A stretch of 64,000 nucleotides of DNA from Escherichia phage vB_EcoM-P3322. The notes under the pieces were generated by a model. It searched no databases. It saw only the letters and a program-made list of their open reading frames with translations, and was not told the DNA's origin. The stretch lies in sequence record PV191315.1; one strand, 5' to 3'. The position numbers were made by a program, and so were the translations under genes. The first letter of the stretch is position 1. Each line of letters starts with the position of its first letter. Shown here piece by piece: positions 28,675-57,041 of the stretch.

Positions 28675-29217
28675 TCACAAATATCGTCTTTGCGGTATTT
28701 TGTCTGGGAAAAGTATTTCGATCAGTTTGTTATGATATTTGCCTAAAAGATTCTGCCCTTTCCAGGTGGCAGGGTTTAGCACCCCTGGTTCATACATCCC
28801 CATTCCAATTCCGTAAACCTTATCGTAGGGGCTTGCTTCAACAAACGTTTTGTATTGGTAAAGGTGTAAGTCTGCATACAAATCTGGATTCTGTACATAT
28901 TTCAAGCATAAACCTCGCATAACAATACGCTCACGGTTCTCTTCCCATACGTTGTTATCAAAATCCGACACTGCCCTACCCATACGTTTGTAATAAGCTT
29001 GGATCTTCTCATCTTTCCGTATCAAACTATGAGTCAGAATAGCCTGTGCAGTGTTGTGGTCATTAAAAAGCAAAGCTTTACGCCACATCATGTATTGTTC
29101 GACACAATTAAATGTCTGATTGTAACCTGGTTCGGTTTCTGTAAAGGGTGCAATATACCAATTACTAAAAACATCTTTATGTGAAAAGAAGAATACATAT
29201 TCGTCAGTTATTCTCAT
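28675..29217 (-). CDS. NADAR-domain protein (YbiA-like, DUF1768)
   Basis: FSNWY...P, EQYMMWRKALLF, ILTHS, MGRAV, NVWEENRERIVMRGLCLKYVQNPDL, GIGMG...GQNLLGKYHNKLIE follow the NADAR motif order. Confidence 0.75.
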   Translation of the reverse strand: MRITDEYVFFFSHKDVFSNWYIAPFTETEPGYNQTFNCVEQYMMWRKALLFNDHNTAQAILTHSLIRKDEKIQAYYKRMGRAVSDFDNNVWEENRERIVMRGLCLKYVQNPDLYADLHLYQYKTFVEASPYDKVYGIGMGMYEPGVLNPATWKGQNLLGKYHNKLIEILFPDKIPQRRYL

Positions 29218-41750: not shown

Positions 41751-42002
41751 ATGGCAGGGTATCACATAACAGACATTAAGAAACAATCTTACGGAAGCAT
41801 AGAAAAGATTAAAGAGGAAGTGGAAGAACTTTTCGATGCTGTTGAACAGGATTGCAAAATAATGCAACTTGTTGAACTATCTGATATTATAGGTGCTGTC
41901 GAGGGAGTGTTAGAACAACAGTTCCCAGGTACGACTTTACAAGATTTGATCATTATGTCAAACATTACTAAACGTGCGTTTCGCACAGGAGGAAGGTCAT
42001 GA
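41751..42002 (+). CDS. hypothetical protein, possible MazG-like pyrophosphatase
   Basis: 83 aa; IEKIKEEVEELFDAV...LVELSDIIGAVEGV helical EExxE/D pattern. Confidence 0.4.
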   Translation: MAGYHITDIKKQSYGSIEKIKEEVEELFDAVEQDCKIMQLVELSDIIGAVEGVLEQQFPGTTLQDLIIMSNITKRAFRTGGRS

Positions 42003-42556
42003 ACACAGGTGTGATTGCCGAAGCCATCCAGAGTTATGGACGCTTTGCTGAAATGTTAGATGTTCCTTATTTAGTAGATGCAGATATTTTGGCATTCACA
42101 CTGCCACCTGGCAAAGAAGATGCTCCTTTGGGGCATCCTAATGGGAAGTTTTATGTTGCCAGTGCCGAGCAATCATTCTTGCAAATGGAAAAGGATGGCT
42201 ACGAGTTTATCGCTGGTCATCCCTACATGGCCCTGACACCATGTTACCGCACAGAGGAAGTGTTGGATGATTCTCACTTCAACATCTTCTTGAAGCTGGA
42301 GTTGATTGAGTTCTATCCCAGCTTTGGTGAAGTGAAAGAGTATGCCGAAGAAATGCGATACTTCTTCTGGACCTACTACAAAGTCCAAACAAGAATTGTA
42401 GAAACAGAAATAGGGCTTGACGTGGAAGACATGAATGGTTTAGAATTAGGGTCATTCGGAACAAGATTGTCCCCACAAGGTCATCCATATATTTATGCAA
42501 CAGCCATAGCCGAACCTCGTGCATCTATGGCAATTAACAGGAGGAATCATGATTAA
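41999..42556 (+). CDS. hypothetical protein
   Basis: 185-aa ORF. Confidence 0.5.
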   Translation: MNTGVIAEAIQSYGRFAEMLDVPYLVDADILAFTLPPGKEDAPLGHPNGKFYVASAEQSFLQMEKDGYEFIAGHPYMALTPCYRTEEVLDDSHFNIFLKLELIEFYPSFGEVKEYAEEMRYFFWTYYKVQTRIVETEIGLDVEDMNGLELGSFGTRLSPQGHPYIYATAIAEPRASMAINRRNHD

Positions 42557-43937
42557 TAAATTTGCCCGTAAACAGGAAGTTGCTGAAGCAGCACGTCGCG
42601 CTGGTGTGTATGACAAATTGTGTGAAGGTATTGTGAAGGTGTATGGCTGGGAGGGAGAAGATGATCCAACCTGTTCAGGTGATTTTGCAATGAACGATAT
42701 GACCTTCCCATATATTTCCTACAATGCCTCCACTGGTGAAATAAACGGTGTAACCAGCACCAGTGTTGATCGTTATCCAGACGCAGAACAAACCACAGGA
42801 GGTTACATGTTAGATCTGATTCTTAAGAAATCAGGGTTATTGGGAATCGAAGACGTTTTCGTAGATGCAGATAGTTTATCATTAAGAGATGTTGTTAAAC
42901 TACTGGTAGACTTTAGATTTGCAACAGGTAAAAGCTTCTGGAAGCCAGAAGATGCTGAACGTTTGAAGACAATCGACCCAAGTATGTATGAACTGCCACA
43001 ATATAAAGATAAACAATTCCGCAAGGTTATCTTCTTTGATCGTCAAGCAGGCTTAGATGCAATGCATATTGAAGTTGGGGATTTACCACGCCCACACTCT
43101 GCTGCTACTGGTGATCGCGGCCTTGTAGAAGTCACGGCCCAAGAATTTAAAAATATGTTTGCTGCGAAATACGATGAAGCTGCGCCTGTGCCAAGTATTG
43201 AGGAGCAAGAGGAAGAACAGTTTGTAGCGGAAGATACTGCATTTGAATATCTGCCGAACACAGGTGTTATGCCTTCAGAAGATTTCGTGCAGGTTCGCTT
43301 CAACAATGGTCAAACAGATGTTGCTAAGGGAACAGTATTCACTTGGAATATCGACAATCTGGAAGAGTGGGCGATTAAAGAATACTTCATTCTCCCGCGC
43401 ACGGCAAAATACAACTATAATAATGGTGGACACCGCCCTTGTGGTGGTCACGTAGAAGTTCTCTTTCGTGACGGAACTACGGATAGTGGATCGGCTACGC
43501 ATTTCACTTGGGGTCATGTTGGATATGATCGGGATATTGTTGGTTGGCTTCCAACTAACAACCCTAAACCACGTTACCGTAAGCCTCGTAAGAAGCCGCC
43601 AGTAGGTAAGAAGAGTGTCGTTCGTGTCCTTTACACTACACAGCAGACATACACATTTAAAAATGTGGTAGACGTGCAAGTGACCGAGGAGCGAGTTTAT
43701 ATCCAATATGATCGTGAAGTTACAGAGGGTATTAAAGAATCGGTTACTACCGAAATTGAAAATAAGCTTGTTATGGCAATCATTGTTGAAGAAAGTAAAG
43801 TAGAGAACGGTAAAGCCTACACTGTTCGTGATAGCTTCTTGCGTAACATTGATGGAACTTGGGATTATAATGGACACGATGGGACCGCTGTAAAGAACGG
43901 TAAGATCATGGGAAGACAATTCCTCTCCAAACGATAA
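42549..43937 (+). CDS. hypothetical protein with internal repeats
   Basis: Start at ATG 42549 after AGGAGG RBS; repeated ...G(Q/T)TD...(T/S)xFTW... segments. Confidence 0.55.
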   Translation: MINKFARKQEVAEAARRAGVYDKLCEGIVKVYGWEGEDDPTCSGDFAMNDMTFPYISYNASTGEINGVTSTSVDRYPDAEQTTGGYMLDLILKKSGLLGIEDVFVDADSLSLRDVVKLLVDFRFATGKSFWKPEDAERLKTIDPSMYELPQYKDKQFRKVIFFDRQAGLDAMHIEVGDLPRPHSAATGDRGLVEVTAQEFKNMFAAKYDEAAPVPSIEEQEEEQFVAEDTAFEYLPNTGVMPSEDFVQVRFNNGQTDVAKGTVFTWNIDNLEEWAIKEYFILPRTAKYNYNNGGHRPCGGHVEVLFRDGTTDSGSATHFTWGHVGYDRDIVGWLPTNNPKPRYRKPRKKPPVGKKSVVRVLYTTQQTYTFKNVVDVQVTEERVYIQYDREVTEGIKESVTTEIENKLVMAIIVEESKVENGKAYTVRDSFLRNIDGTWDYNGHDGTAVKNGKIMGRQFLSKR

Positions 43938-46344: not shown

Positions 46345-46536
46345 ATGGTTACATATTTTGCTGTAGGAGATAGAGTAGGGACGGCGGGAGAACTTTTGAA
46401 GAACAGTGATCGGGACGTTAAGGACATTCTTGCAACCCTTGTGGATATTTTACAAAGAAAAGAGTTGCTTTCTGATCGAGATGTTGCTAAATTACTTGAT
46501 ATCGGAGGAGATGAACTTCAAAGACTTCCATTTTAA
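46345..46536 (+). CDS. hypothetical small protein
   Basis: Start at ATG 46345 after AGGAGG RBS. Confidence 0.4.
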   Translation: MVTYFAVGDRVGTAGELLKNSDRDVKDILATLVDILQRKELLSDRDVAKLLDIGGDELQRLPF

Positions 46537-46551
46537 GTGAGGAGATAAGTA

Positions 46552-47157
46552 ATGCAACATAGTGTAGTAGTCAACATGCCGAATAGTGGGGATAAATCTT
46601 TTGGTGTCCCTGCTAAAAAAGTGTGGAAAGCCCATTTTCATCTTACTTTATCTAATGTTAGTTCTGAAGAGTTGATGAAAGCAGCTAAGATTATTGGTGC
46701 CAAATGCACAACAATTGATTTACATCGGGATACAAAGTCTCAACGTGATCGTATGTTAACAAAGTATCAAAGCGATCTCGACACTACTTTAATGTTGCAG
46801 TGTGTAGAAAAACTTGAGAATGCAGGTTTCAATGTTGTTCGTTACAAACTGGAACGAATGTTTAAACATGTTGCCTGTGTTCTTTTCATGGATCTAAGTA
46901 AAGAAAATTACGGAGAAGTTCACATTAAGACTTCAGCAAGTGATCCCGAAGTAGAAACAAACTTCTTCCGTATTTCTTCTAATGCTGAAGAAGTTGATTA
47001 CCGATTTTATAATGCTCGCTTATATTCCGCAGAAGATAAGTTGCGTTTCAATGAAGCGTATGATATGCTCTTGAACAGTGGGATACAGATAAAAGGCTAC
47101 CACATAGAACAAGTGGTAGTGGACAGTAATCTTAACTTAGACGCATGGTGGGCTTAA
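46552..47157 (+). CDS. hypothetical protein
   Basis: 201 aa; single HxTx-like HFHLTL motif only. Confidence 0.5.
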   Translation: MQHSVVVNMPNSGDKSFGVPAKKVWKAHFHLTLSNVSSEELMKAAKIIGAKCTTIDLHRDTKSQRDRMLTKYQSDLDTTLMLQCVEKLENAGFNVVRYKLERMFKHVACVLFMDLSKENYGEVHIKTSASDPEVETNFFRISSNAEEVDYRFYNARLYSAEDKLRFNEAYDMLLNSGIQIKGYHIEQVVVDSNLNLDAWWA

Positions 47158-47158
47158 T

Positions 47159-47815
47159 ATGACTATTAAACATATCTCTTTTGATGTATGGAACACACTG
47201 ATCACAGCAAACTCCAATTACGCAGACATGCGAGCCTGGACTATCGCAAAATATGGAGATATTACGGAAGTGGAAGCAAGAGCAGCTTATAAAAAGATCA
47301 AAAAGGAACTGGATAATGCAGCACTTCAAGGCAAAGCCGAGTGTGCAGCATATGCTTGGGAAAGACTTGGTTCTGAACTTGGGATAACGCCTTGGAAGTC
47401 TGCAAAGCTTCGTTTCGAGTGTGAACAGTGGTTCCTTAAGTTTCCACCACACGTAGCCGTGGATCTGCCGATGTACTTGCTGTATCTTTCGGGGCGTTAT
47501 GATTTGAGTATTAAGAGCAATACCAACTTCATATCAGGGGATATCCTGCGTCGTGCTTGTAAGTTTGATAGTTGGAATTGTTTTGAGTTCACCCATTTCT
47601 CGGATGAAGCTTTACTTTGTAAACCAGATCCGCGATTCTTTGCTCGCACGCTCACGTATTCTCCGATCCCTCTGTTAGGGCACGAAGTGTTGCACGTAGG
47701 CGATAGTGAAGAATATGATGGAAAATGTGTTGACTTAGGATTTAACTTCTGTCATATTAAGAACCCTAACGACTTACTAGAGAAACTTAAAAGAGGAGAA
47801 ATTGTAAATGCGTAA
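47159..47815 (+). CDS. HAD-like hydrolase
   Basis: Motif I FDVWNTL, II LSIKSNTN, III KPDPRFF, IV VGDSEEYD. Confidence 0.7.
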   Translation: MTIKHISFDVWNTLITANSNYADMRAWTIAKYGDITEVEARAAYKKIKKELDNAALQGKAECAAYAWERLGSELGITPWKSAKLRFECEQWFLKFPPHVAVDLPMYLLYLSGRYDLSIKSNTNFISGDILRRACKFDSWNCFEFTHFSDEALLCKPDPRFFARTLTYSPIPLLGHEVLHVGDSEEYDGKCVDLGFNFCHIKNPNDLLEKLKRGEIVNA

Positions 47816-48635
47816 TCAAACTCAAATTTTTGCAAATAAATTTGATGACCTGGAAACTGCTACTTTTGATATCCAAGATTATTCAAAATTGAAATTTGGT
47901 AGTAACCAAGCTGCGCGTCGTATGGGTAAAGAATTGGCACTTCAGTTTTTTGCTCAAGTGGCAATGAAACATATTGGGGAACAATTTGTTATCATTCCTT
48001 CTCCTTATAACCATGTGCATAATGCTGCAACAATGATGACAGATCATTTTATTAATTACTTTAATATGTTGCAATCACAATATGATCAAGGTCGTTCAGC
48101 AGAACTGGACATTATTCATCGTAAAGTTAGCTATATCAACGATTATGGTTTCTTGGATAAAGCTAGTCGTAAGAAACTTATTGATGGGGATACATTCTAC
48201 TGCAACAAAGAATTCTGGGGTGATAAGAAGCTTGTATTCATTGATGATGTAAATATCACTGGAACGCATGAAGACAAACTGATTGAGATCCTTGATGAAA
48301 ATCAAGTTAAAAATGATGTTTACTTCCTGTATTTTGCAAAATACGAAGGTAATCAAGCAGATACCGAAGCTAAACTGAATTTTAACTACATTAATACACC
48401 AGAAGCGTTTGTTAAAATGATTAATGAAGAACGTGATGCACAGTGTCTTGTTCGTCCTATTAAGTATCTTATGGGCCAAAATCATGAAGACTTCAAAATC
48501 ATTCTTAGCCAATTGCCACATTACTATGTAGAGCAACTTTTCTTTGGATGCTTGGGAGAAGGTTACAACCGAATTTCAAAGTATGCTGAAAACTTTGAAT
48601 TCTTGGATCGTTACACAAAACAACACATTCTGTAA
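47808..48635 (+). CDS. phosphoribosyltransferase (type I PRTase)-like protein
   Basis: PRPP-binding-loop-like KKLVFIDDVNITGTHE; 8-nt overlap with HAD gene. Confidence 0.55.
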   Translation: MRNQTQIFANKFDDLETATFDIQDYSKLKFGSNQAARRMGKELALQFFAQVAMKHIGEQFVIIPSPYNHVHNAATMMTDHFINYFNMLQSQYDQGRSAELDIIHRKVSYINDYGFLDKASRKKLIDGDTFYCNKEFWGDKKLVFIDDVNITGTHEDKLIEILDENQVKNDVYFLYFAKYEGNQADTEAKLNFNYINTPEAFVKMINEERDAQCLVRPIKYLMGQNHEDFKIILSQLPHYYVEQLFFGCLGEGYNRISKYAENFEFLDRYTKQHIL

Positions 48636-48648
48636 TAAGGAGCTAAAA

Positions 48649-49122
48649 ATGCTTAAAATTAAAACAGGTAATCTTATTGATGCCGCTAAAGCAGGTGAAG
48701 TAACTGTTATTGCTCATTGTTGCAACTGTATGTGTAATATGGGGGCAGGTATTGCCCCACAAATCAAACGAGCATTTCCTTACGCATATGCAGCAGACTT
48801 AGACACAATGGCTGGTGATCAAAGTAAACTAGGTTGTTTTAGTTTAGGGGTGCCAGACGAACAATCCGACCCTTTGGTATATAATCTATACGGGCAATAC
48901 CGTTACGGATACAATGCTAAAGGTCGTCAGTTGGACTATGATGCACTTTACGATGCACTAATAGCTATGGCTAACGATTTGCTTCTCCGTGACCAAAAAT
49001 GTAAGATCGGCTTACCTATGATTGGCGCTGGATATGCTGGAGGTAATTGGGCTATCATCCAAGTGATGATTGAAGAAACTTTAGTAAAAACAGGTCACGA
49101 TGTGACTATTTATAAACTTTAA
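48649..49122 (+). CDS. macro-domain-like protein
   Basis: Start at ATG 48649 after AAGGAG; GNLIDAAKAGEVTVIAHCCNCMCNMGAGIAPQIKRAFP and GLPMIGAGYAGGNWAII resemble macro-domain loops. Confidence 0.55.
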   Translation: MLKIKTGNLIDAAKAGEVTVIAHCCNCMCNMGAGIAPQIKRAFPYAYAADLDTMAGDQSKLGCFSLGVPDEQSDPLVYNLYGQYRYGYNAKGRQLDYDALYDALIAMANDLLLRDQKCKIGLPMIGAGYAGGNWAIIQVMIEETLVKTGHDVTIYKL

Positions 49123-49134
49123 GAGGAGATTAGT

Positions 49135-49356
49135 ATGGGTGTTTTTGCAGGTATTGTTGCAGTGGTAAGCTTTTTTGTTATTGCTTTTATGCTTAGTTTG
49201 ATTCCAGCTTGGTTACTGTTGCTGGCTTACAACTATGTTGCTGAAGTTATGGGTCATGCAGATATCACTGTCCCAGTAACCTTCTGGACCGTGGTTTGTG
49301 TTTCGTTTATTCTGGCTGTATTACGAGGAATCTTTTCCTCTCATTCAACAAAATAA
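49135..49356 (+). CDS. small membrane protein
   Basis: 73 aa, two TM helices. Confidence 0.5.
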   Translation: MGVFAGIVAVVSFFVIAFMLSLIPAWLLLLAYNYVAEVMGHADITVPVTFWTVVCVSFILAVLRGIFSSHSTK

Positions 49357-49359
49357 GTG

Positions 49360-49418
49360 TTGACATAGTTCTTAAAAAGAGTAAGATGTATCACATGAAG
49401 CGGGGAATAGTTCCCCGC
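49360..49418 (+). promoter_or_regulatory. promoter + 5' GC-hairpin module upstream of terC
   Basis: TTGACA (49360-49365), 16-nt spacer, TAAGAT (49382-49387), GTATCACAT, hairpin GCGGGGAATAGTTCCCCGC; same class as the minus-strand modules. Confidence 0.6.
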
Positions 49419-49435
49419 AAAGAGAGGAGAAAAGA

Positions 49436-50410
49436 ATGCAACTTGGTTTCCCAATTATTGATGTAGTTGTTTTAGTTGGTATTTTAGCATTGTCTATTGG
49501 TATTGATTTCTTTGGTCACAAAGAAAATAAAGAAATTTCATTCAAATCCGCAGTTGGTTGGTCGATCTTTTGGATTGGTGTATCATTAGCTTATTATGGT
49601 TTTGTATACTTCCAACATGGTGCCGATTTTGCTAACTTGTTTTTAAGTGGATATGTGTTGGAAAAATCTTTGTCGGTAGATAACTTGGTAGTATTTGTAG
49701 CAGTATTCGCAAGTTTTGGTATTAAAAGCACACACTTGCAGCACAAGATTCTACTTTGGGGTATTGCAGGTGCGATTGTCTTCCGAGGTGTGTTTGTAGC
49801 AGTAGGCACTTACTTGTTAAGTTTGGGCTGGTATGTTAATATCTTCTTCGGTGCGGTCATCCTTTTCTGTGCAGCTAAAATGGTATTTGCTGGAGATAAT
49901 GACGCAGAAGTTGATTACTCTAAACACTGGGCTACCCGTATTGTTCGTAAACTGTTCCCTGTATCTAATAAAATGGATGGGGAGAAGTTCTTCACAATCG
50001 AAAATGGTGTTCGTGTAGCAACTCCAGCTTTGGTTTGCGTATTCGTGATGGAAATGGTGGATGTAATCTTTGCAGTAGATTCGGTTCCAGCGGTGATCGC
50101 AGTGACACAAGAACCCCTGCTTGTATTCTCTTCGATGTTATGTGCAATCTTAGGTCTACGTGCTCTGTTCTTTGTTCTTAGTGTCGCACTGAAGTATCTG
50201 GTTCACTTGGAGAAAGCAGTTATTGTGGTTCTGGTGTTTGTAGGCGTTAAACTGATGTATCACCCGTTTGCAGAAACATTGCATGAGAAAATGAGTTTCC
50301 TGCCAGCACATATTGATCCAACTATTAGTATGTATATCGTGCTTGGTACTTTGGCCCTTGGTGTTATTGCAAGCTTTATCTTCCCTGAAAAAGAAGAAGC
50401 TACTGTTTAA
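49436..50410 (+). CDS. terC: TerC/Alx-family integral membrane protein
   Basis: Multi-pass membrane protein with YVLEKSLSVDN and FAVDSVPAV...ILGLRALFF signatures. Confidence 0.85.
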   Translation: MQLGFPIIDVVVLVGILALSIGIDFFGHKENKEISFKSAVGWSIFWIGVSLAYYGFVYFQHGADFANLFLSGYVLEKSLSVDNLVVFVAVFASFGIKSTHLQHKILLWGIAGAIVFRGVFVAVGTYLLSLGWYVNIFFGAVILFCAAKMVFAGDNDAEVDYSKHWATRIVRKLFPVSNKMDGEKFFTIENGVRVATPALVCVFVMEMVDVIFAVDSVPAVIAVTQEPLLVFSSMLCAILGLRALFFVLSVALKYLVHLEKAVIVVLVFVGVKLMYHPFAETLHEKMSFLPAHIDPTISMYIVLGTLALGVIASFIFPEKEEATV

Positions 50411-50416
50411 TAAATG

Positions 50417-50440
50417 AGCCTCCTTCGGGAGGCTATTTTA
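50417..50440 (+). terminator. intrinsic terminator
   Basis: AGCCTCCTTCGGGAGGCT hairpin followed by ATTTTAT. Confidence 0.65.
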
Positions 50441-50452
50441 TAGGAGAGACTT

Positions 50453-50803
50453 ATGAGTAATTTTGATGAAATTCAAGAACTTGTTTGGGATTTATCTGGT
50501 GATGTGGATTACATTTCAGATTATCTTTCAAAAGTTTACCCTGGGGTAAGCGTTATGATTGTGACCAAAGATCCAATTAATTTGCCTCCTAACGTGGTAG
50601 CTTGTTGTGGAAGTGGTTCAGGAGAAGTAGAGCCTGTATCTCGTTGGGAATTAACTAAAGCTGTTTCAAAACGAAATGGTGAAGTTTTGAATATTGATAT
50701 CGAACAAATATGGACTTCTCCAGCAGCCAAATGGAATGATCCTAATGGTTGGGATTTGTTCTTCTGGGATAATGAAACTGATGATGAGGTATTTTTAAAA
50801 TGA
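50453..50803 (+). CDS. hypothetical protein
   Basis: 116-aa acidic ORF. Confidence 0.5.
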   Translation: MSNFDEIQELVWDLSGDVDYISDYLSKVYPGVSVMIVTKDPINLPPNVVACCGSGSGEVEPVSRWELTKAVSKRNGEVLNIDIEQIWTSPAAKWNDPNGWDLFFWDNETDDEVFLK

Positions 50804-52035: not shown

Positions 52036-52626
52036 ATGCATACCGAGAGAGACTTGCAACTCTTGTGGTGGGAAGTGATGCAGGAAATAAAAGAAGATTT
52101 TCCTGCTTACTACAACATGTTACGTGAAGCAGGATATAAAGCTTGTGTTAGAAACAAAGTGAATAACTCTTTCGGTTGGTGCAACTACCGAGATAAAATT
52201 GTTGTTGTAAATTGGCACTTGCATAAGAACTCCACAAGAGATATGATCGTGGATACAATGAAGCACGAAATTGCTCATGCTATTGATGGTTGTATGGGTA
52301 AGTTTAGTAGGCACGGTGCTCATTGGCAAAAACTGGCAGCAGAATTAGGGGCTAATCCTAAAGCCACTTCCAAAGAGCCGTTGAACCACGAATATAAATA
52401 TGTTCTTGTTCTGGTAGATAGGTTTGCGACAAGATGTGTTAGAGGTTATAATCGTAAACCTAATCGCATGTACCCAGGTAAGCAACCTAATATGTGGTTG
52501 AAATCAGATAAAGAAGGGACCGAAGGAAAATTATGGTTGTATAAATGGGACGATTGGGTTAAAGTAGCTAAAGAGTACGGTGTTTCACCATATATAAGAG
52601 ATGCAGAAGAGGAGAATGAAGAATGA
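52036..52626 (+). CDS. SprT-like zinc metalloprotease-domain protein
   Basis: HEIAHAIDG (HExxH) followed by HGAHWQ. Confidence 0.6.
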   Translation: MHTERDLQLLWWEVMQEIKEDFPAYYNMLREAGYKACVRNKVNNSFGWCNYRDKIVVVNWHLHKNSTRDMIVDTMKHEIAHAIDGCMGKFSRHGAHWQKLAAELGANPKATSKEPLNHEYKYVLVLVDRFATRCVRGYNRKPNRMYPGKQPNMWLKSDKEGTEGKLWLYKWDDWVKVAKEYGVSPYIRDAEEENEE

Positions 52627-53735
52627 CAAGTCCATTTTTAAAAGCAGCTACTGGTGGTCAGAAGAAGCCTGAAATGAGCGTATTTGCTGCAACAACAGAT
52701 GCAAGTAAATCTGTATTCGCTCCAAGCGTGTTAGATGCCAGTCCTGTTTATGCACCAGCGGCACCGCAAGAAGTTCCAGTTTTGCCTTCTATGACCCGAC
52801 AAGAGATCGAAGAGATTGGGGCAGAGGCAGGAACAACCTTGCGTTCCTTGAATGCCGAGGTATTAAAACATCAACGTAGTAATCAAGGCGATCAGATGAG
52901 TGAACGACTCACAGCTTTGATTAAACAGGCAAAACAACTTGATCCAAACTCTATTAAACAAAGCAAGGGTATTACTAAACTCATTAAAAAAGTTATGGGT
53001 ATGAAAGAAGATCTGTTTGGGGAGTTTGATAATGTTAATAACCGTATTGAAGAGTTGGTAAAGAACCTTCAAATGGATATTCGCAAAGAAGAAGATTCCT
53101 TGGTATATCTTGAAAAGCTACATCAAGCTATTGGACAATATGCTGCAAGTTTGAACCGAGATATGCAGCTTCTAACAGCAACCTATGAAAAAGAAGAACA
53201 AGCTTTGGCTGCTCTTCCAGAAGATGCAGTAGAACAGCGACAAGTGATCCGAGATACTTTGGATCTTCTGGAGATTCGTATTGCAGATTTAAAAGCATTG
53301 CGCCTACTGTGTGTCCAAATGGGACCGCGTGTACAAGGTATGCAAAAAGTTTCTGCAAGCTTAATGCGATCTGCGCGTAACATAGTAAATAATGTTATTC
53401 CTGCTTACTCTGCTAACTTCTCAATGTATATCGAGAGCTTACGTCAAATGAAAGCAGCAGAGACGCAGAATAACGTTCTTGATGAATTTAACCTGGCAAT
53501 TAAACTGGGTAGCGATCTTGCCACACAGAATCAGATCGAAGCAGCAGCACTGGCTAACCGTCAAGTGTTGGATATTGAAACTCTGCGTCACGATCAGGAA
53601 AACTTGGTTAAGATGTTGGAAGAAACTAACCGCATCAATACGGAAGCCCGTGCTGCTCGTGTTGATTATATTAATGAAGTTCAATCTCTGGAAGACGGGA
53701 TGGTAGCTGCTGTGAAACGAGGGCTTGGTAAATGA
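52623..53735 (+). CDS. hypothetical helical protein, possibly TelA-like
   Basis: 370 aa, Gln/Glu/Leu-rich helical composition; size and Ter context fit TelA; no motif verified. Confidence 0.5.
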   Translation: MTSPFLKAATGGQKKPEMSVFAATTDASKSVFAPSVLDASPVYAPAAPQEVPVLPSMTRQEIEEIGAEAGTTLRSLNAEVLKHQRSNQGDQMSERLTALIKQAKQLDPNSIKQSKGITKLIKKVMGMKEDLFGEFDNVNNRIEELVKNLQMDIRKEEDSLVYLEKLHQAIGQYAASLNRDMQLLTATYEKEEQALAALPEDAVEQRQVIRDTLDLLEIRIADLKALRLLCVQMGPRVQGMQKVSASLMRSARNIVNNVIPAYSANFSMYIESLRQMKAAETQNNVLDEFNLAIKLGSDLATQNQIEAAALANRQVLDIETLRHDQENLVKMLEETNRINTEARAARVDYINEVQSLEDGMVAAVKRGLGK

Positions 53736-53929
53736 GAATCCGTATCTATATAATTGATGAAGACATTGGTGTCCGTTATGATGACGAAAAACGATTCGCA
53801 CCGATGGGAGGTATATATCCCCCAAGTGTTCTAGCAGTTTGTCGTGATTGTTATATTTATGAAGGTTGTCGTAACTTCCGTAAATTCGAACTCCTTGCAG
53901 ATATTGACTTCAATGAGGAGGAGGAGTAA
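53732..53929 (+). CDS. hypothetical protein
   Basis: 65-aa ORF. Confidence 0.45.
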   Translation: MRIRIYIIDEDIGVRYDDEKRFAPMGGIYPPSVLAVCRDCYIYEGCRNFRKFELLADIDFNEEEE

Positions 53930-54102
53930 TGAAAATATTACGAGTGAATATTGAAACTGCTTGGTGTGGATGCAATGAGGTTGTGGATATCGAAATTGAA
54001 GATGATATGTCTCAAGAGGATATAGAAGATCTTGCGCACGAAACCTTTCAGGATTATTGTAATTACGGGTTCCATATTTTAGAGGAGGAAGAAGATGTTT
54101 AA
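53929..54102 (+). CDS. hypothetical small acidic protein
   Basis: 57-aa ORF with GAGGAGGAGG RBS. Confidence 0.35.
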   Translation: MKILRVNIETAWCGCNEVVDIEIEDDMSQEDIEDLAHETFQDYCNYGFHILEEEEDV

Positions 54103-54298
54103 CTACGATAACGATCCTAATATTATCCAGTTAACCCGACAAGAACTGATCACAATCATTGAAGATGCTTTTATTGATGGCTGGAATACACAAGATAATG
54201 ACTGGGGTGGACCCGAAGCTTTTCTGGAACATCATAAAACTTATGGAGACTCTTGTGAAACCACTGTAGCTCTTGATAATCTGAAGGAGGGTTTGTAA
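54095..54298 (+). CDS. hypothetical protein
   Basis: 67-aa ORF. Confidence 0.45.
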   Translation: MFNYDNDPNIIQLTRQELITIIEDAFIDGWNTQDNDWGGPEAFLEHHKTYGDSCETTVALDNLKEGL

Positions 54299-54861
54299 TG
54301 GGTTGTTTTAGCTTTTTGTGCAAAGAATCGGGCAAAGCTGCCCTTTCTACTTCTTTCGACGGATCACCTTGCTACCTCTTTCTTTTGAAGGACGGTGTTG
54401 TTATTGAAGAGATGTATGGCAACTATGATAGTTATGGTTGTGTTTTCTCTGGAAAGGAGGATGAAAACGGCGTTCGTGAACGGTTCGAATGGGCTATGGA
54501 TTGGGGTAAGGTTTGTGATTTGATGCATTCCTCAAATCCAAGGGACGGTATCGCTATGGTGCTGGAAGAGTACTTTACAGGTGAAATCCCTACAGAACAA
54601 TCTGACGGAGATCCTAACCAAGGTTGGGGTGATGGTGAAGAAGATCCAGATTGTTTTTTCAGCACAGAAAAGAATAAGTTTAAACGTGTTGACAACCCTT
54701 ATCACAAAGTGCATAATACTCTCATTGAAACAGAAGATGACAAGATGGAAATTGAAGAAGATGATCCTCTTGTAACACTTCCTATAAGTGAGTTACAAAA
54801 GATCACTAAGGAAGCTTACGATTTGGGCTTCAAAATTGGTAGAGGAGGTATGCGTGTTTAG
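54298..54861 (+). CDS. hypothetical acidic protein
   Basis: 187-aa ORF. Confidence 0.5.
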   Translation: MGCFSFLCKESGKAALSTSFDGSPCYLFLLKDGVVIEEMYGNYDSYGCVFSGKEDENGVRERFEWAMDWGKVCDLMHSSNPRDGIAMVLEEYFTGEIPTEQSDGDPNQGWGDGEEDPDCFFSTEKNKFKRVDNPYHKVHNTLIETEDDKMEIEEDDPLVTLPISELQKITKEAYDLGFKIGRGGMRV

Positions 54862-55132
54862 ATTCAATATTCAAGAAGAAAAAAGTCAGGATTTACCTAT
54901 TGCTTTCGAAGATCTTGACGTAGGGGCCACATTCATGTATTATGATGCCTATGAAGACGCAGGGTTGGATACCTACCGTAACTTGGTGTTCATTAAAAAT
55001 TCCACAAACAGTGCGATTTGTATTAATGGATCACTAGCACAACGAGGCTATACTCATTGCATCCCACCAGATACAAATATGGTGGAAGTAGATTTAGAAG
55101 TTACCAATATTACACTTAAGAAGGAGAAATAA
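54854..55132 (+). CDS. hypothetical protein, Ter-associated small paralog 1
   Basis: GTG start after AGAGGAGG; (D/E)DLDVGATFMYYDAYEDAGLD...VTNITLKK parallels 56154-56423. Confidence 0.45.
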   Translation: MFRFNIQEEKSQDLPIAFEDLDVGATFMYYDAYEDAGLDTYRNLVFIKNSTNSAICINGSLAQRGYTHCIPPDTNMVEVDLEVTNITLKKEK

Positions 55133-55133
55133 T

Positions 55134-55928
55134 ATGTCCGAGAAAATCAGCCTGAAAAAACGTCAAGAAAACCTTGCTTTCTCTCTGAAAAAGAATAAGA
55201 ACCTGAACGAAGGTAAGATTGTTCTTCGTGTAGCATGTGCTCTAGATATTTCTGGTAGTATGCATGGTCTATATTCTAGTGGGGTAGTGAGTGATTTTGT
55301 AGGTAAACTGCTTCCTTTTGGTATGCTGTTCGACGATAATCAACAAATTGATATGTGGGCCTTCAATACGAGTTCCCAAGAGCTTACTCCAGCAACAGCA
55401 GATGTTTACGATGACTATGTTGGTAAATGTATGCGTAATGTTCGTATCGGAGGTGGAACAAATTACGCCCCTGTAATGGCGGATATCTACGATGAGTATT
55501 TTGGCACTGTTACTAAATATATTACCACTAAACAAGTGGTACAAGAGGAGGCTCCAAAGAAAGGTTTCTTTAATCGTCTACTTGGTAAAACTGAAACAGT
55601 ATCTGTAGAGCGTGAAAAGGTCGTAGCTGTATCTGAACCAGGTGCTGACGTTACCCCTGGTGTTGTATTCTTCCAAACGGATGGTGAGAATGGTGATCCT
55701 AGTGCTGTTCGTCGTCTTATCGAAGAGAATAAGAATAAACCTATTTATTGGTTCATGGTTGGCGTTGGTAATGAGAAGTTTGGCTTCCTGAAAGAACTGG
55801 CAAATGCTTATGATAATGTTGGTTTTATTGGTATTAAAGATTTAGACTTGACAGATTCAGAGCTTTATGACAAACTCTTATCTGAAGAGTTCGGAGAGTG
55901 GGTTGTTAAAGTAGGTGCTAAAAAATGA
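55134..55928 (+). CDS. von Willebrand factor A domain protein (TerY-like)
   Basis: MIDAS DISGSM...GGGTNY...FQTDGENGD; N-terminal MSEKISLKK like TerD N-terminus. Confidence 0.75.
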   Translation: MSEKISLKKRQENLAFSLKKNKNLNEGKIVLRVACALDISGSMHGLYSSGVVSDFVGKLLPFGMLFDDNQQIDMWAFNTSSQELTPATADVYDDYVGKCMRNVRIGGGTNYAPVMADIYDEYFGTVTKYITTKQVVQEEAPKKGFFNRLLGKTETVSVEREKVVAVSEPGADVTPGVVFFQTDGENGDPSAVRRLIEENKNKPIYWFMVGVGNEKFGFLKELANAYDNVGFIGIKDLDLTDSELYDKLLSEEFGEWVVKVGAKK

Positions 55929-56173
55929 TCGACGAGCTTGCCTCTCAAGTCATAGAAAATTATTGGCGCGAGAGAGAAGCTTTCATTATGCGCAGTCTCA
56001 AAGAGTATTTCATTGGGACTGTGCGAATGGAAGATATTGTAAGTAGAGTAGAGATTCATGTATGGCCTGATTATGAAGAATGGGTTGACAAAGAAAATGA
56101 AAATGCTATAATTCTTCGTATATACAAACCGGAGATAACATTAGGAGGAAGAAGTGTTAAACTTCGAAATTGA
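55925..56173 (+). CDS. hypothetical protein
   Basis: 82-aa ORF. Confidence 0.45.
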   Translation: MIDELASQVIENYWREREAFIMRSLKEYFIGTVRMEDIVSRVEIHVWPDYEEWVDKENENAIILRIYKPEITLGGRSVKLRN

Positions 56174-56423
56174 TGAGCAAAAAGTAAATAAACGATGCCT
56201 TACCATTAAAGATTTGGATGTAGGAGATACTTTCGTCTATGAAAATGCATTTGACGAAAATGGTTTAGACCTTAGTGAAATCATTGTTTATTTAAAAGTA
56301 GATGATGGGGAAAACGATTATTCTGCTGTAGAACTAAACCATCATGCACAATTAGTATCAATCCAAAACACATCTAAGCTTTTGGAAGTAGAATTGACTG
56401 TAACTGGTATTACACTTAAATAA
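56154..56423 (+). CDS. hypothetical protein, Ter-associated small paralog 2
   Basis: GTG start after GGAGGAAG; KDLDVGDTFVYENAFDENGLD...VTGITLK. Confidence 0.45.
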   Translation: MLNFEIDEQKVNKRCLTIKDLDVGDTFVYENAFDENGLDLSEIIVYLKVDDGENDYSAVELNHHAQLVSIQNTSKLLEVELTVTGITLK

Positions 56424-56438
56424 TAGAGGAGACAAAAG

Positions 56439-57041
56439 ATGACTGATAAAATTTCCCTGAAAAAAGGCTCTAGCGAAAAAATTTCCCTGAAGAAAGTTGC
56501 TCCGGCTCTGAAAGAACTGCGCCTGGAATTCTCTTGGAAATCTGATTCTAAACTGGATCTGGATGTAAGTGCACTGGTTTGTCGTCATAATGCCGCTGGC
56601 AATCCTGAAATGTTGTCTGCACGTCATCTGGTTTGCTATGCTAACAAGTTTGATCCTGAACGTTCTACCTTCGCTGGTGACGATGTTCGTGATGGAACTG
56701 GTAGCATGGAGCAGATTGATATTACTCTGGCTAAAATCTCTCCTGATGCACAAGAGATTGCCTTTGTTCTGACCATTGATGATGATACAGGTCTGAAACG
56801 TTTTGGTCATGCTTCTGAAGGTATGCTTAAAATCTTCGACTCCGAGCGCAATGTGGAAATTCTGGATTTTGACTTCCTGGCTCCTGAAGTAGCTGGCAAC
56901 ACAATCTGCCACGTGGCTTCCTTGGTTCGTGAAGATGGGGAATGGAAGCTGAAAGCATATGGTGTAGGTAAAGCTGGTCTGGATATTTGTGATGTGGTGA
57001 TGGCCTTCGGTGGTAAAAAAGAATGGTATGAATGTCCATAA
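56439..57041 (+). CDS. terD: TerD-family protein
   Basis: KISLKKG...LEFSWKS...DLDVSALV...GDDVRDGTG...EQIDITLAKI...IAFVLTIDD...GEWKLKAYGVG follows TerD strand pattern. Confidence 0.85.
   Translation: MTDKISLKKGSSEKISLKKVAPALKELRLEFSWKSDSKLDLDVSALVCRHNAAGNPEMLSARHLVCYANKFDPERSTFAGDDVRDGTGSMEQIDITLAKISPDAQEIAFVLTIDDDTGLKRFGHASEGMLKIFDSERNVEILDFDFLAPEVAGNTICHVASLVREDGEWKLKAYGVGKAGLDICDVVMAFGGKKEWYECP

Follow-up and report, generated by a model that had tools for sequence, protein, structure and literature searches.

A stand-alone Gln-type macrodomain of a phAPEC8-like phage is a probable AdfM-type orphan antitoxin whose link to the neighbouring HAD, PRTase and Ter genes is positional

Among the described relatives of the gene considered here, which occupies positions 48649 to 49122 of a 64,000-nucleotide stretch of Escherichia phage vB_EcoM-P3322 (PV191315.1; this whole stretch is referred to as the window), are macrodomain proteins that act on ADP-ribose (ADPr) attached to other molecules. 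SCO6735 of Streptomyces coelicolor clears DNA of ADPr linked to thymidine and protects cells against the toxin DarT; mutation of its His24, Gln85 or Gly128 residues abolishes or lowers this thymidine-ADPr DNA hydrolase activity, for which Asn27 is also important, and catalysis by human TARG1 relies on a Lys84/Asp125 dyad (PMC9411070). Among phages, T4 has a single gene, tk.4, that turns essential when the host carries DarTG2, and a clean knockout of this gene, which has been named adfM, sensitises T4 to DarTG2 (10.1101/2025.11.20.689424). PhiKZ gp104, which is also called AdfM, has been found biochemically to free DNA modified by DarT2 of its ADP-ribose (PMC13309987). A NADAR protein serves the other known chemistry: in the work of Johannesman et al., AdfN(Bas60) was guanine-specific, neutralised DarT1 and allowed phages to grow again on DarTG1 hosts, and it did not counter DarTG2 (PMC11825919). 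The gene at 48649 to 49122 encodes a Gln-type macrodomain that is probably an AdfM-type orphan antitoxin, one that would hydrolyse thymidine-linked ADP-ribose set on single-stranded phage DNA by DarT2. Judged by its homology, it appears to be a member, with a predicted function, of the phage counter-defence family described in 2025–2026 and not a new kind of system.

The gene, its ribosome-binding site and the ligand-contacting segments of its product are placed as follows.

48649..49122, plus strand: stand-alone macrodomain gene, AdfM-like/SCO6735-type predicted ADP-ribosylglycohydrolase, 157 aa plus stop (open reading frame (ORF), Pfam, PHROG, AlphaFold2)
48637..48642, plus strand: Shine-Dalgarno sequence AAGGAG, 6 nt 5' of the macro ATG, within the 13-nt spacer after the phosphoribosyltransferase (PRTase) stop (read from the sequence)
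48715..48756, plus strand: loop 1, residues 23–36 (HCCNCMCNMGAGIA), glycine-rich ADP-ribose/phosphate-binding loop (alignment to SCO6735, conservation)
48883..48933, plus strand: N79-L-Y-G-Q83 motif and extended loop to residue 95 (alignments, conservation, model confidence)
49015..49044, plus strand: loop 2, residues 123–132 (PMIGAGYAGG), diphosphate-binding loop (alignment to SCO6735 and to TARG1 GCGLDRLQW)

The reading frame runs from an ATG at 48649 to a TAA at 49120–49122, and the ATG lies 14 nt downstream of the end of the PRTase stop codon at 48635, exactly as had been placed in the original prediction, which was made from the letters of the window without database searches. That prediction had also likened the segments VTVIAHCCNC...MGAGIA...KRAFP and GLPMIGAGYAGG to macro-domain ligand-binding loops and had proposed a profile search and a structure prediction as checks; both segments are present and are real macro ligand loops by Pfam, PHROG, structural database (PDB) and model comparisons alike. 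The Pfam Macro profile (PF01661) matches residues 23–135 with 23.1 bits, above the gathering cut-off of 22 bits, a match that is marginal alone and is backed by PHROG 335 (3e-54). Searched against the PDB with phmmer, the protein retrieves SCO6735 (9e-13), Bacteroides BT1257 (9e-9), TARG1 (2e-6) and DarG (3e-6), and a family profile, built like the counts of invariant columns below from 48 homologues, retrieves BT1257 (4e-21), SCO6735 (4e-19), TARG1 (9e-18), DarG (5e-11) and yeast Poa1p (1e-9). The AlphaFold2 model, with a mean predicted local distance difference test (pLDDT) score of 94.6 and a predicted template-modelling (TM) score of 0.91, displays the three-layer α/β/α macro fold with its two glycine-rich ADP-ribose-binding loops. 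In Foldseek the model comes closest to TARG1 (E 1e-11, TM 0.80/0.89), BT1257, Thermus aquaticus DarG, Poa1p and SCO6735, among 228 PDB macro matches at E<=1e-3 with top TM scores of 0.80–0.89, whilst MacroD-type and alphavirus macrodomains rank below TARG1, DarG, SCO6735 and BT1257, at 12–19% identity. The protein is confirmed as a genuine macrodomain, and chance resemblance of the ligand loops is dismissed. It belongs to the ALC1/TARG1-like macrodomain class, because its closest relatives in both sequence and structure are TARG1, DarG, SCO6735 and BT1257, and it is near-certain that it binds or hydrolyses some ADP-ribose conjugate.

The residues that line the ligand site narrow this placement. 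In loop 1, H23 and N26 align with SCO6735 His24 and Asn27, and H23, N26, G34 and A36 are invariant in the 48 homologues; invariance or near-invariance runs through both N26...G32-A-G34-I-A36 and G126-A-G128, and extends to K60. N79, Y81 and Q83 of the central motif are invariant as well, and Q83 aligns with SCO6735 Gln85, the same position being Lys84 in TARG1 and Lys80 in DarG. Of all blocks in the model, the loop that follows this glutamine (residues 84–95) has the lowest pLDDT (83), as would suit a flexible loop. Its SCO6735 counterpart is a 'mobile loop' that has been proposed to act as a DNA clamp, and TARG1 shows a 6-residue gap where the extended loop stands. In loop 2, G126 and G128 align with SCO6735 Gly126 and Gly128, A130 stands in place of TARG1 Asp125, and P123, G126, G128 and G132 are invariant. 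The SCO6735-type residue set is present in full, H23, N26, Q83 and G128 being the equivalents of His24, Asn27, Gln85 and Gly128, and is accompanied by the extended loop. The protein has neither the catalytic dyad of TARG1, whose Lys84 and Asp125 align to Gln83 (or Gly82) and Ala130, nor the catalytic lysine of DarG (K80 in T. aquaticus), where Gln83 is found. The comparison shows this Gln-type, SCO6735-like active site to be the prevalent form among phage macrodomains, in a family of 2,933 phage records that includes T4 Tk.4.

In common with the window protein, T4 Tk.4 is a stand-alone phage macrodomain of about 155 aa that matches PHROG 335. The two are 36% identical over 124 aa (BLASTP E 6e-21), and both carry the HxCNC, NLYxQ (Gln-type) and GAG motifs. 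Tk.4, publicly labelled 'phosphatase, A1pp motif', is encoded in the tk-vs region of Straboviridae and lacks most of the extended 83–95 loop, whereas the window protein retains this loop and is encoded in the PRTase/TerC region of a member of Stephanstirmvirinae. The PADLOC model of DarG matches the macro half only of both proteins (4e-10 for the window protein, over profile positions 1–144 of 329, and 1.4e-9 for Tk.4). PhiKZ gp104, an orphan DarG2-like antitoxin (PMC13309987), is likewise a stand-alone phage macrodomain in PHROG 335, but it is only remotely akin to the window protein (hhalign 93.7%, 20% identity; BLASTP 8/24 residues), and it is Lys-type (N23/K78), lacks HxCNC and is imported into the phage nucleus, whereas the window protein is Gln-type with HxCNC. 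As a phage stand-alone macrodomain homologous to T4 Tk.4, the window protein is a probable AdfM; direct orthology with PhiKZ AdfM was rejected on account of the remote similarity, and the protein is filed with T4 Tk.4 and SCO6735.

SCO6735 (PDB 5E3B) and BT1257 (2FG1/2AFC), the closest solved relatives by sequence, have in common with the window protein the His/Asn/Gln/Gly active site, the long mobile loop and the lack of a Lys/Asp dyad. They differ in being products of bacterial chromosomal housekeeping or stress genes, are about 27–30% identical to it, and SCO6735 is described as strongly electropositive whereas the window protein is acidic. An acidic isoelectric point (5.6 here) was dropped as an objection to a DNA substrate because the validated AdfMs are equally acidic (5.9 and 5.05). 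DarG (T. aquaticus 5M3E, Mycobacterium tuberculosis 5M3I) is of the same macro class (Foldseek E 7e-10, TM about 0.8), and to this extent the likeness to DarG raised in the original prediction stands. It goes no further than the class: besides lacking Lys80, the protein, at only 157 aa, is without the C-terminal DarT-binding domain of DarG, its neighbours are the PRTase and a 73-aa membrane protein in place of an adjacent darT, and its NCBIfam DarG score of 34.6 is below the cut-off of 250. Human TARG1/OARD1 is the best structural match, and the overall ligand loops are common to TARG1, Poa1p and the window protein.

The window derives from a Phapecoctavirus (Stephanstirmvirinae, phAPEC8-like E. 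coli myovirus), and its positions 46500–50500 are 99.3% identical to Escherichia phage tuntematon and match 134 phage records. Existing GenBank labels for the macro gene are 'putative phosphatase; Macro_Poa1p_like' (SKA64) and 'phosphatase' (tuntematon gp091), and the Bas60 homologue is already labelled 'putative macrodomain protein'; the domain call is not new, as public records had it. The gene is under purifying selection. Compared with a relative that shares 90% of its amino acids, and from which it differs by 54 synonymous and 24 non-synonymous changes, it has a dN/dS of 0.078, and its four differences from phage iGC_PHA_EC001 are all synonymous. The 2,933 phage records of the macro family include Vequintavirinae, Felixounavirus, Pakpunavirus, T4-like phages, Ackermannviridae and others, and a spread over so many unrelated virulent phage groups is as expected of a mobile counter-defence gene.

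A second gene of the window bears on the favoured role. The NADAR protein that the original prediction had invoked in support of an ADP-ribose theme does exist, 19 kb from the macro gene and on the opposite strand.

28675..29217, minus strand: NADAR protein, 180 aa, probable AdfN-type anti-DarT1 (guanine-ADPr) hydrolase (PF08719 7.8e-36; PHROG 1017; PADLOC PDC-M42C)

It shares 59% identity with the YbiA-like NADAR bas60_0111 of phage PaulScherrer/Bas60. We infer that bas60_0111 is AdfN(Bas60), since no other gene of the NADAR type is annotated in the 49-kb Bas60 stretch examined. The window NADAR is probably the anti-DarTG1 gene of this phage. Since AdfN(Bas60) is guanine-specific and gives no protection against DarTG2, there is a gap that could be filled by a thymine-specific eraser; the phage lineage has a validated guanine-ADPr eraser, to which a thymine-ADPr eraser would be the natural complement. 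Elsewhere, 16 out of 80 viral loci have a NADAR gene no more than 8 kb from the macro gene, and five out of 79 bacterial loci have one within about 2 kb.

We infer thymidine-ADPr DNA as the substrate, and with it the biological role. In hosts with DarTG2, thymidines in single-stranded phage DNA are ADP-ribosylated by the DarT2 toxin, and replication is blocked. The phage macrodomain would then bind the ADP-ribose via its two glycine-rich loops, and Gln83, positioned by Asn26, would hydrolyse the thymine–ribose bond in a water-mediated reaction as proposed for SCO6735 that uses no catalytic lysine; removal of the ADP-ribose would restore replicable DNA. Together with the phage NADAR, whose counterpart in a relative removes the guanine-linked ADPr of DarT1, the macrodomain would cover both known DarT chemistries. 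The original prediction had pointed to an ADP-ribose-centred function without choosing between anti-DarT activity, processing of signalling nucleotides and a part in the Ter metabolite pathway: the general theme holds, and homology to Tk.4, the SCO6735 residues and the NADAR gene favour the anti-DarT option, whilst the Ter option has not survived comparison, as set out below.

Several considerations weigh against this assignment. The evidence on this protein and its Stephanstirmvirinae homologues is wholly computational; identity to T4 Tk.4 is only 32–36%, and similarity to PhiKZ AdfM is remote; and the evidence on Tk.4 is genetic, from a preprint, and not enzymology (10.1101/2025.11.20.689424). 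The substrate range of macrodomains is notoriously plastic, SCO6735 also de-modifying proteins and TARG1 deacylating O-acyl-ADPr. The gene is, moreover, tightly packed with HAD and PRTase_3 genes in both genera of the subfamily, and many homologues are found in NAD+ salvage islands (with NAMPT, NUDIX, SIR2 and Prs in phages, and with PncB and NadE in bacteria), a setting just as compatible with action on free ADP-ribose derivatives.

These islands bear most directly on the view that the enzyme acts on free ADP-ribose derivatives in NAD+/ADP-ribose metabolism, either as a Poa1p-like ADP-ribose-1''-phosphate phosphatase or as a TARG1/OARD1-like O-acyl-ADP-ribose deacylase, allowing ADP-ribose to be recycled by clearing away what sirtuins, NADases or RNA repair produce; we consider this unlikely. 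In jumbo-phage-like contigs, macrodomains of about 50% identity directly adjoin NUDIX, NAMPT, HAD_SAK_2, SIR2 and PRPP synthetase genes, in NAD+ islands that also hold NADAR and Thg1. Within 8 kb of 80 viral macro genes, loci that are phylogenetically non-independent, NAMPT is found in 26, Prs in 22, SIR2 and NUDIX in 21 each, NADAR in the 16 noted above and PRTase_3 in five, and the recurrent neighbours in bacteria are NadE, PncB and NADAR, some homologues lying in PncB–NadE–macro(–NADAR) operons. This pattern supports the NAD/ADP-ribose theme and keeps a role on a free ADP-ribose derivative alive, and it is joined by the public 'phosphatase / Macro_Poa1p_like' label and by a clear structural match to Poa1p (TM 0.76–0.81), for which the mutants in the PDB include H23A. 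Such neighbourhoods are nevertheless non-discriminating between the roles, because NADAR has the same ones and yet proved to be a DNA de-ADP-ribosylase. Similarity to T4 Tk.4 and, in the profile search, to SCO6735 and BT1257 is also far above that to Poa1p, no homologue of NAMPT, NUDIX, SIR2 or Prs is found in the window, and the 201-aa protein encoded upstream is not the 2H cyclic phosphodiesterase that a Poa1p-type pathway needs. A little less likely again is a reversal of ADP-ribosylation on targets other than those of DarT2, namely proteins (at Glu/Asp, as for SCO6735 and TARG1) or RNA, the marks coming, for example, from other anti-phage ADP-ribosyltransferases (ARTs) or from phage-encoded ones. 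SCO6735 does hydrolyse both protein-linked and DNA-linked ADPr, RNA-targeting defence ARTs such as CmdTAC exist, and macrodomain specificity is not readable from sequence. Yet SCO6735 showed no activity against ADP-ribosylation at the 2'-OH of RNA (for 5'-phosphate-linked ADPr, the same paper is inconsistent about its activity), the sole reported phenotypes of phage homologues concern DarTG2, and no ART gene was noticed beside the macro gene.

The remaining alternative takes its cue from the genes around the macro gene, which are arranged as follows.

47159..48635, plus strand: HAD hydrolase then PRTase_3 (ComF-like), a two-gene module (also at loci L008, L009, L010 and L184–L195)
49135..49356, plus strand: 73-aa protein with predicted membrane helices, after a 12-nt spacer from the macro gene and with its own GAGGAG
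49360..50434, plus strand: TerC/Alx-family gene (TIGR03718, 3e-95), apparently its own transcription unit
52036..57041, plus strand: scattered Ter-type set (SprT-like metalloprotease 52036, TelA 52623, vWA-TerF-like 55134, TerD 56439)

A Ter-associated HAD/PRTase_3 biosynthetic module was reportedly described by Anantharaman, Iyer & Aravind in 2012, and the macrodomain might be a step in such a pathway to a 'nucleoside-like metabolite', binding or trimming the phosphoribosylated product of the PRTase. We regard this as highly improbable. In its favour, the plus-strand genes for the 201-aa protein (46552), HAD (47159), PRTase_3 (47808), the macrodomain and the 73-aa membrane protein (49135) are tightly packed, with an 8-nt overlap or spacers of 1–13 nt; the order HAD–PRTase_3–macro recurs, with macro identity falling as low as about 49%, in Phapecoctavirus, Justusliebigvirus and metagenomic relatives; and macrodomains recognise ribose-phosphate moieties. 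Conserved co-occurrence of the macro gene with PRTase_3, HAD and Ter genes across lineages was, however, not found. Among 18 IMG/VR PRTase_3 loci, retrieved by an alignment-based search and with neighbours counted within 8 kb, 17 have HAD immediately upstream and 11 have Ter genes (vWA-TerF, TerD, TerC), six of these 11 being distant lineages, whereas the macro gene is present only in the five Stephanstirmvirinae-like loci. The 13 more distant loci have HAD adjacent in 12 cases and Ter genes nearby in six, and no macro gene within 8 kb, save that the most divergent of them (L196) shows one weak and fragmentary match at its far edge; Xanthomonas XaC1, Rhizobium and Brevundimonas phages also have HAD–PRTase_3 and no macro gene. 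Conversely, none of 79 bacterial loci with macro relatives (38–48% identity) has PRTase_3 or Ter genes nearby, and PRTase_3 is found in 156 phage records against the 2,933 of the macro family. The PRTase–macro junction itself is variable, measuring 13 nt here, about 290 nt in Justusliebigvirus, where it is an N-terminal extension of the macrodomain; other relatives have about 950 nt or about 590 nt, the latter with a 184-aa ORF of its own. In IMGVR_UViG_3300041405_000148, a 153-kb relative, the genes for the 201-aa protein, the macrodomain and TerC are together while HAD–PRTase_3 lies 10.6 kb from the macro gene. TerC, moreover, has its own promoter-like site (TTGACA-16-TAAGAT at 49360–49387) and terminator (a GC-rich hairpin with a T-run at 50417–50434). 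Membership of the PRTase/HAD/Ter pathway was rejected on these comparative grounds, which are evidence against a functional tie: the link is positional only, the macro gene is a lineage-specific neighbour, and its place after the PRTase is taken to reflect how the genes are ordered in this lineage, in an early region where they are densely packed. There is equally little to expect of a recruitment of the Stephanstirmvirinae macrodomain beside HAD–PRTase_3 and the phage-only 201-aa protein for cooperation. It would be just as surprising if ADP-ribose, from DNA via the macrodomain or from host NADase defences, were fed into a PRTase/HAD-dependent salvage or signalling route, and the corresponding further NAD+/ADP-ribose recycling pathway, distinct from NARP1–3 and perhaps tied to the TerC/TerD/TelA membrane-stress genes, is similarly doubtful in the extreme. 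A milder form of the cooperation idea would give Gln-type phage macrodomains a wider range of substrates than the Lys-type AdfM and DarG have, taking in proteins or small molecules besides DNA.

If the anti-DarT2 role is confirmed, phAPEC8-like phages would carry a complete two-enzyme kit against DNA ADP-ribosylation, NADAR for guanine (DarT1) and the macrodomain for thymine (DarT2), and this would help to predict their host range on DarTG-bearing clinical strains. Phages of this group have been isolated in many places, and they serve as candidates for therapy against pathogenic E. coli. The widespread 'putative phosphatase' label of PHROG 335 is probably misleading. The comparison also sets the macro gene apart from HAD–PRTase_3(–Ter), which looks like a genuine conserved phage module.

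Phages of Xanthomonas, Rhizobium and Brevundimonas carry the HAD–PRTase_3 pair, as do many uncultured large phages, and vWA-TerF-like, TerD or TerC genes frequently lie no more than 8 kb from it. The pair adjoins a NUDIX protein gene in Rhizobium phage RHph_TM21B and lies near NAMPT in two IMG/VR loci. The block was also considered as a published NAD+ pathway, NARP3, and this was rejected: NARP3 consists of PnuC and NadR, which are unrelated, and the window has none of the NAMPT, NUDIX, SIR2 and Prs genes sought. Bacterial Alx genes usually carry a yybP-ykoY (Mn2+) riboswitch. Rfam finds no match in the whole window, no yybP-ykoY element at TerC among them, and the idea that TerC or the macro gene might have a riboswitch or another RNA element close by was rejected. 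The Ter-type genes at 52036..57041 stand in a lytic phage with small uncharacterised ORFs in between.

In bacteria, operons of the form PncB–NadE–macro–(121-aa protein)–NADAR occur in Kangiella, Aliikangiella, Bacteroidales and others (loci L116, L144, L156, L174 and L124); those chromosomes hold both ADP-ribose 'eraser' families beside NAD+ salvage or synthesis genes, with no DarT nearby. The 73-aa membrane protein is co-conserved with the macro gene throughout the Stephanstirmvirinae-like loci (46–100% identity) and is absent from other macro contexts.

The Justusliebigvirus macrodomain (Bas60 bas60_0070; L011 14889..15623) has an N-terminal extension of about 90 aa, which the PHROG 335 profile takes in. 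In a metagenomic relative, the 184-aa ORF (L005 5457..6011) that sits between PRTase and macro gene has an N-terminus homologous to this extension (29% identity, E 1e-6), which indicates a gene fusion or fission at the PRTase–macro junction. Upstream of nrdD, at 41999..43937 on the plus strand, lie two ORFs of 185 and 472 aa, neither with a Pfam match at E<=0.01, that bear conflicting public names (seryl- or histidyl-tRNA synthetase and 'class III ribonucleotide reductase'); these names look unreliable.

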